Below, in pieces: positions 698 to 33,416 of a stretch of DNA of 47,886 nt. Position 1 is the stretch's first letter. The number at the start of each line of letters is the position of its first letter. The notes beneath the pieces are model-generated. The model did no database searches, was not told the DNA's origin, and was given only the letters and a program-made list of their open reading frames with translations. The stretch lies in IMG/VR virus record IMGVR_UViG_2563366951_000006. One strand, 5' to 3'. Origin of the DNA: a virus (lineage: Duplodnaviria > Heunggongvirae > Uroviricota > Caudoviricetes). The position numbers and the translations under genes were made by a program.

Positions 698-1060
698 GGG
701 GCTGATTCTGGATTCGACGGGATTTGCGAAACCCAAGGTGCATGCCGAGGGGCGGTTGGCCTCGTAAAAAGCCGCAAAAAATAGTCGCAAACGACGAAAA
801 CTACGCTTTAGCAGCTTAATAACCTGCTTAGAGCCCTCTCTCCCTAGCCTCCGCTCTTAGGACGGGGATCAAGAGAGGTCAAACCCAAAAGAGATCGCGT
901 GGAAGCCCTGCCTGGGGTTGAAGCGTTAAAACTTAATCAGGCTAGTTTGTTAGTGGCGTGTCCGTCCGCAGCTGGCAAGCGAATGTAAAGACTGACTAAG
1001 CATGTAGTACCGAGGATGTAGGAATTTCGGACGCGGGTTCAACTCCCGCCAGCTCCACCA
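698..1060 (+). ncRNA. ssrA: tmRNA (SsrA), 363 nt
   Basis: Starts GGGGCTGATTCTGGATTCGACGGG; internal tag-peptide frame ANDENYALAA-stop at about 787..819; tRNA-like 3' end GGGTTCAACTCCCGCCAGCTCCACCA. Confidence 0.95.
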
Positions 1061-30169: not shown

Positions 30170-30340
30170 ATGATTATCAAGCCCTGTCCCTACTGCGGAA
30201 AGTTAATTAACCCAGAATCACTTGTGTGTAGCCACTGCCGGATAGTGAATCCTTTTGTGAAGGCCAGCAGAAGAGAAAAAGCGAAGAATGTATTAGTAAT
30301 CGCTCTCGTTGCTGCTTTTTTAATTTGGATGATTCTCTGA
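30170..30340 (+). CDS. Possible small zinc-ribbon membrane protein (56 aa)
   Basis: ATG ORF below the track cutoff: MIIKPCPYCGKLINPESLVCSHCR... then a hydrophobic C-terminal helix; weak RBS. Confidence 0.3.
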   Translation: MIIKPCPYCGKLINPESLVCSHCRIVNPFVKASRREKAKNVLVIALVAAFLIWMIL

Positions 30341-30778: not shown

Positions 30779-30853
<75 letters not shown>

Positions 30854-30856
30854 ATA

Positions 30857-30932
<76 letters not shown>

Positions 30933-30934
30933 AG

Positions 30935-31008
30935 TGGTCCGCCACCGGAGCCTCGAACCCCGTACCACAACACCTGGGTTGCCGCTCTTCCCGATGAGCT
31001 AGTGGCGG
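30935..31008 (-). tRNA. tRNA-like gene with non-canonical anticodon arm (anticodon unassigned)
   Basis: Perfect acceptor (CCGCCAC/GTGGCGG), D and T arms; best anticodon-arm fold is GCAAC/GTTGT around a 6-nt loop CCAGGT. Confidence 0.5.
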
Positions 31009-31010
31009 TC

Positions 31011-31087
31011 TGGTGGCCCTTGCTGGACTTGAACCAGCGACCGGGCGATTATGAGTCGCACGCTCTAACCAACTGAGCTAAAGGGCC
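31011..31087 (-). tRNA. tRNA with CAT anticodon, Ile2-like (lysidine) or Met
   Basis: Manual fold: anticodon loop CTCATAA; resembles enterobacterial ileX as I recall it. Confidence 0.75.
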
Positions 31088-31212
31088 GGGAGCAAGAAGA
31101 TACATAGGTAAAACTACCCTTGCAATAATATGGTTTTATGATGAAAAACAATCAGGGAAATGGTTAAATATCAAGCGGCAGTGCTTTCAATCTAACCAGA
31201 GCAAGGGAAGAT

Positions 31213-32163
31213 ATGATTTTTATTAAAAACGGCAATAGCTTTGATCGCATTAATGACTGGACAGAAATTCAAGCTCGGGAAAGCTATCATTCCAGGCTGG
31301 AACTGACCGATCAACAATTATCCGATGTTTTTGGTTATTATGATGACCTCCCGGAAGAAATCCCGTGTGGCAAGTCGAGCTGTCGAACAGGCCATAAAAA
31401 AGGGTTTCTTGTTCTTACTGAGGATGGTCTGGAGACGAACCTGGGTCACGTTTGCGGTACAAAAGTCTTCGGTATAGCATTTGAAAACCTAGCCACTGAC
31501 CTCGAGAAAAAGGCAAATTTCCACAGATATCTAACAGCCCTCAAGGAAGCCAAGAAAAATATTTTTCTCCATTACCAAGCAAAAGCCAAAATCGAAGCCA
31601 GTGAACCATCATTAGAATGGGTCGCACATAAAATTTTAGATTTAAGAGATTCTAAAGTAGTTGGCCGAGCCGGGAGTCAAGCTTTGAAACGTATGGCTGC
31701 TTTAGGAGATGGAAAAGTTTTACTTCCCAGAAGGAAAACCAAGGAAGAAATGCAGTTGTCGAATGTTATGTCTCAAAAACCTTCCGATAACGAAGATGAA
31801 AATGCTGAGGATAATGTAAAACCACAATTCATCGACGAAGTAATTGGCATTGTTCGTAATCCTGAATGCCTCCTCAACGATTATAACATAGCGCTAATCT
31901 TCGAAAGAGATATTCGCCTTGTGCTGGAAGAACTCAATAATTGCAATCCTGACGATATTCCTGAGAAGAAGGTCATGTCATTAGGATTAAAAGTTTCCAG
32001 GCTGAATGAAAGATTTCAATTCCTTCAGGATCGTTTTGAGAAAGCATGTATATATCTCACAAAGGAAAACTTTAAACCTTTAAATCATCAACTACATTTG
32101 AAAAAATCAATTAGCAATAAAGATAAGGCCCTTTTCAGTTCTTTCGTTAACTCGCTGCCATAA
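31213..32163 (+). CDS. Hypothetical protein (316 aa), moron between the Q-like gene and the tRNA/lysis block
   Basis: AT-rich ORF on the strand opposite to the late operon, followed by its own terminator; no family recognised. Confidence 0.65.
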   Translation: MIFIKNGNSFDRINDWTEIQARESYHSRLELTDQQLSDVFGYYDDLPEEIPCGKSSCRTGHKKGFLVLTEDGLETNLGHVCGTKVFGIAFENLATDLEKKANFHRYLTALKEAKKNIFLHYQAKAKIEASEPSLEWVAHKILDLRDSKVVGRAGSQALKRMAALGDGKVLLPRRKTKEEMQLSNVMSQKPSDNEDENAEDNVKPQFIDEVIGIVRNPECLLNDYNIALIFERDIRLVLEELNNCNPDDIPEKKVMSLGLKVSRLNERFQFLQDRFEKACIYLTKENFKPLNHQLHLKKSISNKDKALFSSFVNSLP

Positions 32164-32165
32164 AA

Positions 32166-32193
32166 AAGCCCCGCAAGGGGCTTATTGTTGAAA
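32166..32193 (+). terminator. Rho-independent terminator of the moron gene
   Basis: agcccc-gcaa-ggggct hairpin followed by a T-rich run. Confidence 0.6.
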
Positions 32194-32271
32194 TCTTTCA
32201 GGCGTTACTCCGCATGATTAGAAGCATACACGACAACTTCGGACAAAATCAAGCCTTATGTCGTAATAATG

Positions 32272-33108
32272 CTAAATTTCGTCACCTTCTTCGCCTAAAC
32301 TGGTTGCAGATTGAAATTCTCTTGCGGCGTTTCCCTCCTCCTGCTGACAAATGCTTACCAGCGCCTCAAGAAACGGTTTCCAGTTGCGAGTCCATGTTCT
32401 GACGTGCAGATCCGGAACGCGCTTCAGTATCACTTTATAGGCTGCGGTAGACGGCACCGCAGAAAATCCATTTCCGCTGCAGCGCTCGCAGGTTTTAAAC
32501 ACCGGCGCGCCGCGCTCGCTTGTGGCCTTGCGGTCTAGAACCTCGCCTTTACCGCCGCAACGACAACGGGCGCTGATCGTTCCCTTGCCTTCGCAAGCAT
32601 CACAGACCGCCGGTACAACCTCTGTTACCTCCATCCACTGCTCCCAGTCAGACGGTCGAACAGCACGAGAGCGGCAGGCCCAGTATGGAGCTTTACCCCA
32701 TGGGTACGAAACCTTGCGGGTAATCTGTTCGCGGGTTGTTCGTCCGGTACCACTGCAGCTGTGACACGTCACGCTTGTAGCCGCCGAACGTGAATAATCA
32801 GCAAAGGCAAATTGTGCCAACATCTGCATGCACCATCCGAACTGCCCACCAGCTGCTTTGCGAACATTCTTCGGTGCGACATCCATCGCATATCGCGCCA
32901 GCGCCTGAACTGCGAGCTGTTCATCCGTTTTGCTGATTCCCGCTTTACCGAAGAACGCCGCCAGTCCGAAGCGCGCACGGCTGCTGGTGGTGCCAATTGC
33001 CGCCATTACATCTGTTCCTGTAAGGCGGTCCGGAGAGGTTCCTTTCACGTCGTCGCTGATGTGCACACCCTGAGGGCTAAAGTGTTTTAGTGATGCTTCC
33101 AACTTCAT
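32272..33108 (-). CDS. Putative late-gene antiterminator (Q-like) with DnaJ-type zinc-finger repeats
   Basis: Four CxxCxGxG repeats (CHSCSGTG, CDACEGKG, CRCGGKGE, CERCSGNG); located upstream of the late operon. Confidence 0.5.
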   Translation of the reverse strand: MKLEASLKHFSPQGVHISDDVKGTSPDRLTGTDVMAAIGTTSSRARFGLAAFFGKAGISKTDEQLAVQALARYAMDVAPKNVRKAAGGQFGWCMQMLAQFAFADYSRSAATSVTCHSCSGTGRTTREQITRKVSYPWGKAPYWACRSRAVRPSDWEQWMEVTEVVPAVCDACEGKGTISARCRCGGKGEVLDRKATSERGAPVFKTCERCSGNGFSAVPSTAAYKVILKRVPDLHVRTWTRNWKPFLEALVSICQQEEGNAAREFQSATSLGEEGDEI

Positions 33109-33416
33109 TGAATGGTTTCCCCCTTTTCAGCAGTGCCAAACCAGCCAGGGTGCGCCCACTGGACATCAGTCACTTTATCGCCGTTACCCCACAGCGTCAG
33201 AACACGCATAGCAACGTAGTGCATAAGGATTTTTTCATGCTCTCGCCACTCATCATCAGGAGTGTCTTCAACAAATTCAGCGATGGCGTCAGCAATAAGA
33301 CCGAAACACTCAGGAAAATCACTATGACCGATTGCGATGTCTTTTGCCGTTTCCTGAAGCTCCATAAAACGCTGCTTGGTAAAGAGATACGACATTTCTC
33401 TAATTAGGCGATCCAT
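33105..33416 (-). CDS. Hypothetical phage protein
   Basis: Start taken at ATG 33416, adjacent to the stop of the primase-helicase gene. Confidence 0.45.
   Translation of the reverse strand: MDRLIREMSYLFTKQRFMELQETAKDIAIGHSDFPECFGLIADAIAEFVEDTPDDEWREHEKILMHYVAMRVLTLWGNGDKVTDVQWAHPGWFGTAEKGETIQ

Follow-up and report, generated by a model that had tools for sequence, protein, structure and literature searches.

An antisense accessory gene at the Q/tRNA/lysis junction of a lambdoid prophage: a candidate exclusion or defence protein of an undescribed family

Several accessory genes of temperate phages are close, in position or organisation, to the gene considered here, an open reading frame (ORF) of 316 aa named ORF316, which is located in the viral DNA stretch IMGVR_UViG_2563366951_000006 (47,886 nucleotides; the whole stretch is referred to as the window). 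In Stx phages, the stx genes point the same way as the late operon and need read-through by the antiterminator Q. Hendrix-type morons, such as lom, bor and HK97 gp15, show a deviant composition, flanking signals including a private terminator, and a patchy presence. Lambda rexAB, P22 sieB and BTP1 bstA are single accessory units of temperate phages that act in exclusion or defence and are expressed in the lysogen; of these, rexAB and bstA are located behind cI. BstA has 307 aa and a KilA-N-like domain, and is conserved in its N-terminal domain but less so in its C-terminal domain. It is a prophage abortive-infection protein with a cognate aba DNA element at the start of its gene (PMC8585504).

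ORF316 resembles each of these systems in part. It shares with stx the insertion site and its tRNA genes, and in phage phi467 a split homologue is found between Q and stx2f. In contrast to stx, ORF316 runs antisense to the late operon behind an upstream region of its own, and Q read-through would oppose it. Deviant composition, flanking signals and patchy presence are shared with the Hendrix-type morons, whereas the terminator is probably not private but shared with the phage terminator tR', the gene is tightly co-inherited with one type of Q and late promoter (pR'), and its family also occurs on plasmids, in satellites and in Mu-like phages. Like rexAB, sieB and bstA, ORF316 is a single accessory unit at the same types of site; some of its relatives likewise stand behind cI, while the window copy is found at the Q junction instead. 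The protein is similar in size to BstA, is also better conserved in its N-terminal domain and would equally need a means of sparing its own phage, but it has a beta domain with a putative zinc motif where BstA has a KilA-N-like domain. No sequence or profile similarity links ORF316 to rexAB, sieB or BstA. PADLOC gave no match, Pfam KilA-N matched neither ORF316 nor 28 diverse family members, and membership of the BstA family was rejected, as hhalign of the family profile (alignment A2, see below) against BTP1 BstA returned a probability of 0.1%. An aba-like element was not identified at ORF316, with no search made for comparable direct repeats. A moron at the Q junction is a known arrangement; the protein family and its predicted fold are undescribed. 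It is established that ORF316 is a selected, horizontally mobile and apparently autonomous accessory cassette and not a core phage gene, and it is best read as independently expressed mobile-element cargo.

ORF316 starts with an ATG and occupies positions 31213-32163 on the plus strand. The Q gene on its right (32272-33108, minus strand, 278 aa) is convergent with it across a gap of 108 bp and belongs to the Q-lambda family (PF03589, E 6e-54, 180.6 bits against a gathering cut-off of 26.7 bits; phrog_127). On its left are a tRNA cluster (30779-31087, minus strand) and the genes for holin, lysozyme and Rz (29970-28741, minus strand). Since the lytic programme of this ssrA-adjacent prophage is encoded entirely on the minus strand, ORF316 is antisense to the late operon. 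The original prediction had described an AT-rich ORF of 316 aa on the strand opposite to the late operon, at the junction of Q, tRNA and lysis genes, and the ORF listing agrees with it exactly in position, length and orientation. The base composition agrees as well, with a GC content of 0.391 compared to 0.50-0.56 in the neighbouring phage genes. At third codon positions (GC3) the value is 0.360, while the Q, primase, lysis, terminase, portal and tail genes reach 0.51-0.60.

A Shine-Dalgarno core, AGGGA (31204-31208, plus strand), ends 4 nt before the ATG. The sequence AAGGG upstream of the start codon is kept in homologues, and the N-terminus MI[FTY][IL] is kept throughout the family. The ratio of non-synonymous to synonymous substitution rates (dN/dS), obtained from five informative homologue pairs, is 0.04-0.08 in both halves of the protein. 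ORF316 is under strong purifying selection, and this, together with hundreds of homologues, identifies it as a real gene and not a chance ORF.

The gene is rare: megablast detected it in 7 of 5426 complete genomes of E. coli, and its protein is present in 5 of 50,697 phage records. Three damaged copies were found among its relatives: one carries a premature stop (W16stop; L030 5001-5942), one, in phage phi467 (L006 4001-4875), is split into two ORFs, and one, in E. coli AW1.7 (L005, L033), is truncated at the N-terminus and accompanied by a different tRNA set. Such pseudogene copies occur at otherwise intact-looking loci. The foreign composition, the rarity, the three decayed copies and the presence of relatives at conversion sites all support the earlier proposal of cargo as opposed to a core phage gene. 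DNA identical to the ORF316 stretch is present in two available strains, E. coli MS 115-1 and FAM21845.

The limits of the cassette are visible on both sides of the gene. Upstream, about 75 nt 5' of the ATG are conserved along with the ORF in homologues at 62-67% protein identity, and the same block is kept whatever lies beyond it, be it different tRNA sets or the holin gene directly. This block includes a candidate promoter of the extended -10 type (31141-31169, plus strand), composed of ATGAAA, a 17-nt spacer and TTAAAT, with a TG at 31161-31162. Its TGnTTAAAT element (31161-31169), TGNTTAAATAT, occurs once in the window. Downstream, a hairpin, AAGCCCC-GCAA-GGGGCUU, begins 3 nt past the stop codon of ORF316 (32160-32183 on both strands; stem 32166-32183), with a six-T tract at 32160-32165 on the minus strand. 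Its folding energy is -15 kcal/mol (z -2.8), and the stop codon overlaps the A-tract that forms the T-tract of the opposite strand. Both boundaries, the upstream block and the hairpin at the stop codon, are conserved with the ORF while the outer flanks vary.

ORF316 had been predicted to possess its own terminator. The hairpin is real and correctly placed, but the terminator scan calls it on the minus strand only, where the six T follow and make it the stronger terminator, and the plus-strand tail reads UAUUGUU; it is therefore not simply the terminator of ORF316. An alignment of 11 homologous loci indicates that its position is fixed at all Q-linked loci while its sequence varies. The hairpin is probably the phage tR', serving both strands and also ending the ORF316 transcript. 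In the gap between Q and ORF316, a late-promoter-like element is found on the minus strand (32215-32252), consisting of TTGATT (32252-32247), an 18-nt spacer and TATGCT (32228-32223), followed by a second -10-like hexamer, TAATCA (32220-32215). The same alignment shows a -35 element TTGAYT, 18 nt and a -10 element TAnnnT in every locus, so that the order on the minus strand is -35, -10, second -10-like hexamer, hairpin and six T. By analogy with lambda pR' and tR', and from the position directly after a gene of the Q-lambda family, we take these elements to be probably pR' with a pause element and tR'. The late strand across the cassette contains no long ORF in the ORF listing.

The protein had been described as having no recognisable family. 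This remains correct for Pfam, NCBIfam, PADLOC and PDB sequences, which give no match for ORF316 and no assignment for the 28 diverse family members, but not for PHROG: ORF316 is a full-length member of PHROG 7003, a family of unknown function and the only one found (E 3.5e-118; its residues 1-315 align to positions 1-308 of a profile 309 positions long). In PADLOC-DB 2.0.0, ORF316 has no match at E <= 1, and the 28 diverse members give scattered single matches only, the best at E 0.0024. An exhaustive profile search at E <= 1e-3 collected 568 clusters at 50% identity, and the best 150 of these are mostly about 300 aa long, with some shorter fragments. The hosts are Beta- and Gammaproteobacteria, including free-living marine and soil species. 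No account of the family was found in the literature, as covered by accession numbers, DefensePredictor supplements and papers on Q-junction cargo, and no record found carries an annotation for it.

Conservation was scored by column across 124 sequences. In alignment A2, which was selected by a hidden Markov model and comprises 28 diverse members, the invariant residues are Y43, C52, C57, H61, G64, G78, C81, G82, F86 and N286. Codons C52 to G82 (31366-31458, plus strand) encode a C-x4-C-x3-H-x19-C motif (C52, C57, H61, C81) and a G72-x2-T75-N76-x-G78 loop. The motif offers exactly four potential metal ligands, all inside the confidently modelled N-terminal domain, and is interpreted as a putative zinc site. 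The family has no conserved stretch of 7-10 residues. When the putative zinc region was turned into a degenerate DNA motif, this had one match in the window and led to family genes in 99 viral stretches and in genome stretches numbering at least 120, the latter corresponding to 83 clusters at 70% identity.

A first AlphaFold2 model, for which 16 close sequences were used, resolved the N-terminal domain poorly. The model built from 28 diverse sequences (m251d292af78b) reaches a predicted local distance difference test (pLDDT) score of 92.9 and a predicted template modelling (pTM) score of 0.77. It consists of a beta-rich N-terminal domain (aa 1-87; 31213-31473, plus strand; pLDDT about 87-95; isoelectric point (pI) 5.0), which is the conserved half of the protein by column conservation, and a mainly helical C-terminal domain (aa 88-316; 31474-32160, plus strand), which also contains two strands and, at aa 187-205, a disordered loop of acidic character. 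The C-terminal domain is mildly basic (pI 8.6) and variable within the family except for E179 and N286. The protein shows no membrane segment, signal peptide, P-loop or nuclease motif, and no catalytic or nucleotide-binding motif was recognised; a soluble, cytoplasmic product is proposed. Foldseek returned no match for the confident model at E <= 1e-3 in PDB or BFVD. ORF316 shows no homology to any core phage function, which also supports its status as cargo.

Treble-clef zinc fingers and HNH (beta-beta-alpha-metal) nucleases are the nearest comparison for the putative metal site. As in these, a Cys pair precedes a beta hairpin and a further Cys stands at the start of the next helix. HNH motifs contain N-L-x-x-L-C, which the T-N-[IL]-G-x-x-C stretch of ORF316 recalls. 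They differ in that all four invariant potential ligands of ORF316 would be needed for one structural metal, and no match was found by Foldseek. Such nucleases have a catalytic His closing the first hairpin strand and, on the helix, an Asn or His that binds metal and has no structural role. An HNH or His-Me finger nuclease was ruled out on the conservation pattern, as the sole invariant His (H61) stands ahead of the hairpin and counts among just four invariant metal-ligand residues. H79 is not conserved, there is no conserved His closing the first hairpin strand, and Pfam HNH matches neither ORF316 nor the 28 diverse members.

The preferred reading, which we hold tentatively, is that the product of ORF316 serves exclusion or defence, is made in the lysogen, works by binding and is shut off at induction by Q-driven antisense read-through. 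ORF316 and its upstream region of about 75 nt would form a self-contained cassette, inserted in reverse between pR'-tR' and the tRNA and lysis genes. In a lysogen without Q, polymerase starting from pR' would travel about 55 nt and halt at the hairpin (32183-32166), so that no antisense transcription is expected over the cassette. ORF316 would be transcribed from its own sigma-70 promoter (about 31141-31169), ending at the same hairpin. The predicted product is soluble and has two domains, the N-terminal beta domain being held by a putative Cys2-His-Cys zinc site and the helical C-terminal domain evolving faster, and it most likely binds rather than catalyses. The target would be a component of a superinfecting phage, or a replication or transcription complex that this phage builds. 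Binding would block the infection, either as superinfection exclusion or as abortive defence, and would shield the lysogen and the resident prophage. Upon induction, Q-modified polymerase would pass the hairpin and traverse about 1.1 kb antisense to ORF316 before reaching the tRNAs and lysis genes. Such a passage should silence ORF316 and so spare the lytic growth of the phage itself. The arrangement suggests a simple way of switching off prophage cargo at induction, by Q-modified polymerase reading through a shared terminator.

We infer the timing of expression, zinc binding, the mode of binding and the defence role; expression in the lysogen and a role in defence or exclusion are suggested by gene order and neighbourhood. 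The sites of relatives count in its favour, since the regions after Q, behind or to the left of cI, in satellites and in islets are where temperate elements keep lysogen-expressed exclusion and defence genes. In a Serratia prophage and a Klebsiella phage, the family gene lies antisense in the region left of cI. In the L071 group and in L166, it is immediately downstream of a cI-like repressor gene on the same strand. One relative is found near lom at a prophage end, the copies in Pseudomonas Hollowayvirus phages are on the opposite strand, and an integrase-AlpA-primase satellite carries the gene at its accessory end. Other members are found on plasmids of Burkholderia, Pseudomonas and Vibrio, and in chromosomal islets with toxin-antitoxin genes. 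A Psychrobacter copy which had appeared to stand in an early operon after cro is in fact located in an islet between nrdA and nrdB, together with a Phd antitoxin gene. As a separate observation, a satellite-like element encodes a 392-aa DUF4236 protein directly downstream of the family gene (L036 1413-2591; L037 3180-4358), and in one of these two loci a pair encoding a TacA-like antitoxin and a GNAT-family acetyltransferase is found upstream.

The immediate neighbours at 83 distinct genome loci include GajA, AbiTii, PDC-S06, Old-like, AAA_21/AriA-like and PD-T4-2-like genes, as well as integrases and cI-like repressors. An AbiJ-like gene is directly downstream of the family gene in three loci. 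One family member adjoins a gene for DUF3037, a domain recently implicated in defence (PMC13092281). A universal partner gene was sought by neighbour clustering across 120 genome loci and rejected, as only lineage-specific neighbours emerged. If ORF316 proves to be an immunity or counter-immunity factor, a widespread and wholly unannotated family would be added to the catalogue of phage-host conflict. The protein is a good candidate for such a conflict protein, most likely an anti-phage one.

Part of the family has a small convergent partner, which provides a second, independent handle on the idea of cargo switch-off. A homologous gene of about 70-120 aa converges on the family gene at eight independent, diverged loci, from Klebsiella, Serratia, Yersinia, two Pseudomonas, Vreelandella and two metagenomic sources. 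The partner genes are located at L003 5597-5809, L031 5929-6177, L034 8992-9237, L041 8929-9177, L119 4607-4831 and L166 3987-4247 on the minus strand, and at L071 98-331 and L076 5597-5878 on the plus strand. The 3' ends of the two genes overlap by 3-44 nt in seven of the eight, and the partner protein has an invariant W..LP near its C-terminus. Among the loci searched, all nine matches of the partner profile are beside a family gene, eight of them immediately and the ninth one gene off; the nine represent eight loci, one of them in duplicate. The partner is the first called gene after Q in Yersinia and the first called gene beyond cI on that strand in Serratia, while the Klebsiella phage record leaves it unannotated. 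In viral contigs, the next downstream gene is convergent in 18 of 24 distinct family clusters compared to 67 of 180 control positions, counts that are indicative only, given crude ORF calls and noisy controls. A convergent partner that comes first in lytic operons fits a family product which the lytic programme must neutralise. In the window the partner gene is absent and pR'/tR' abuts ORF316. It is conceivable, although on balance doubtful, that ORF316 represents a new family of single-protein anti-phage immunity, with two domains in a fold not described before, whose carriers protect themselves by a head-on antiterminated lytic transcript and, in some lineages, by an antidote gene as well. 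The head-on transcript would be driven by Q in the window and presumably be the leftward early transcript beside cI in Serratia and Klebsiella. The antidote gene would be the one that overlaps the 3' end of the family gene and comes first in the lytic operon.

Several points weigh against an exclusion or defence role. The protein has no homology to known defence proteins (PADLOC 2.0.0) and no effector-type domain. All steps of the mechanism rest on sequence-level evidence, and a sigma-70 consensus scan of the window flagged no site at the candidate promoter of ORF316. The acidic pI of the N-terminal domain does not favour nucleic-acid binding, and close relatives show no diversifying selection by dN/dS. 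The list of defence neighbours is descriptive. Finally, some relatives occupy sites associated with anti-restriction. Mu-like prophages of Methylophaga carry the family gene at their right end, on the same strand after com and a Dam-type (D12-class adenine) methylase gene, which is the position of the anti-restriction mom operon. The draft genome of Methylophaga thiooxydans DMS010 contains at least eight such copies (loci L059, L060, L064, L092, L112, L116, L130, L138 and L148). On Vibrio plasmids, the family gene is only a few genes away from genes for antirestriction, a zincin-like metallopeptidase domain (possibly ArdC-like) and Hok/Gef.

These last sites favour the opposite role, in which ORF316 would be a counter-defence or establishment factor made from a constitutive promoter on DNA entry and in the lysogen, binding and inhibiting a host immune or stress system in the manner of anti-restriction and anti-CRISPR proteins. 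Such a role is the main rival, unlikely but to be taken seriously. The family is nearly confined to temperate phages, satellites and plasmids, its copies on Burkholderia plasmids come last in a series of small genes of the same orientation close to the relaxase gene, and a binder-type protein with acidic segments and no effector domain would suit an inhibitor. Some relatives occupy positions like those of the Mu mom region and the plasmid ardA/ardC neighbourhoods, and a further resemblance is that the protein is of the binder type without an enzymatic motif, but it has no homology to anti-restriction or anti-defence genes. The lambdoid copies are antisense to lytic transcripts instead of being within early operons, and several members are co-oriented directly behind cI, both of which are unusual for counter-defence. 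Other members reside in chromosomal islets beside defence and toxin-antitoxin genes. The small convergent gene heading lytic operons is also hard to explain if the protein aids lytic growth.

ORF316 could instead serve lysogenic conversion or maintenance outside any conflict, either as a regulator of host physiology or as an addiction-type toxin checked by antisense transcription. This explanation ranks next, close behind, and is likewise unlikely. An autonomous cassette at a cargo site would accommodate it, no family assignment constrains the function, toxin-antitoxin neighbours are frequent (Phd, TacA/acetyltransferase, HicAB, ParE, VapC), and the overlapping convergent gene in seven of eight loci could be read in the same way. 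However, the absence of a signal peptide or membrane segment argues against a surface or secreted factor, and the spread over free-living marine and soil Beta- and Gammaproteobacteria argues against a host-specific virulence trait. Moreover, a universal antitoxin-like partner was not found among the loci, and a protein of 316 aa is unlike type I toxins.

The nearly constant proximity to Q raises the question of a phage regulatory gene tied to Q, acting as a modulator of late transcription or lysis timing. A scan of related loci covered 32 loci at 58-100% identity (six annotated records and 26 IMG/VR loci), and the same type of Q (73-100% identity) is convergent at 110-140 bp in 31 of them, namely all six annotated records and 25 of the 26 IMG/VR loci. 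In these loci ORF and Q diverge together while the lysis and replication modules vary, and the tR' hairpin is common to ORF316 and the late strand; a function linked to Q would explain the adjacency. Such a function is nevertheless very unlikely. A member from Ewingella, 58% identical, sits after a Q of the unrelated family PF06323, and members elsewhere stand by cI, in satellites, on plasmids, in Mu-like prophages or between nrdA and nrdB. The gene is missing from phages whose Q DNA is 91-97% identical, and the pseudogene copies occur at loci that otherwise look intact. In Yersinia, a small gene separates Q from the family gene. The link to Q is physical and not obligatory, and co-inheritance is accounted for by physical linkage to a block formed by the Q C-terminus, pR' and tR'. 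In addition, similarity to phages SaltyDalty, Fraca, LMessi and CharmingMan (32459-33200) extends over the gene upstream of Q and the N-terminal portion of Q itself. Since this similarity ends inside Q, the Q C-terminus, late promoter, hairpin and ORF316 appear to form one mosaic block.

A decaying or functionless hitch-hiking ORF, as could be supposed from the three damaged copies and from the fact that the gene is annotated nowhere, is excluded as far as sequence evidence goes by the selection analysis, with a dN/dS of 0.04-0.08 in both domains, and is further contradicted by full-length conservation over 568 clusters at 50% identity and by the confident fold prediction.

The surroundings of ORF316 contain further small genes. 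According to ARAGORN, the tRNA cluster comprises tRNA-Gly (TCC), tRNA-Thr (TGT), a doubtful tRNA-like stretch and a tRNA with a CAT anticodon, which is annotated as Ile by RefSeq in identical DNA. Rfam backs three of the four, and RefSeq annotates three tRNAs there. The tRNA-like stretch (30935-31008, minus strand), located between tRNA-Thr and the CAT-anticodon tRNA, has an undefined two-base anticodon in ARAGORN, is missed by the Rfam tRNA model; it probably represents a degenerate tRNA. The small RNA STnc100 (RF02076; 30368-30560, minus strand), situated between the tRNA cluster and the holin gene, scores 71.7 bits against a gathering score of 47, and its end coincides with a minus-strand terminator at 30398-30379. 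A second AT-rich ORF on the opposite strand (30170-30340, plus strand; 56 aa; GC 0.415) codes for a protein in which a hydrophobic C-terminal helix follows a zinc ribbon, with weak matches to DUF2116/Zn_ribbon. Six related loci keep this ORF beside ORF316 with 100% conservation, and it may represent a further small cargo gene. A tmRNA gene (698-1060, plus strand) with the tag ANDENYALAA, close to the left end of the window, is consistent with integration of the prophage beside ssrA.

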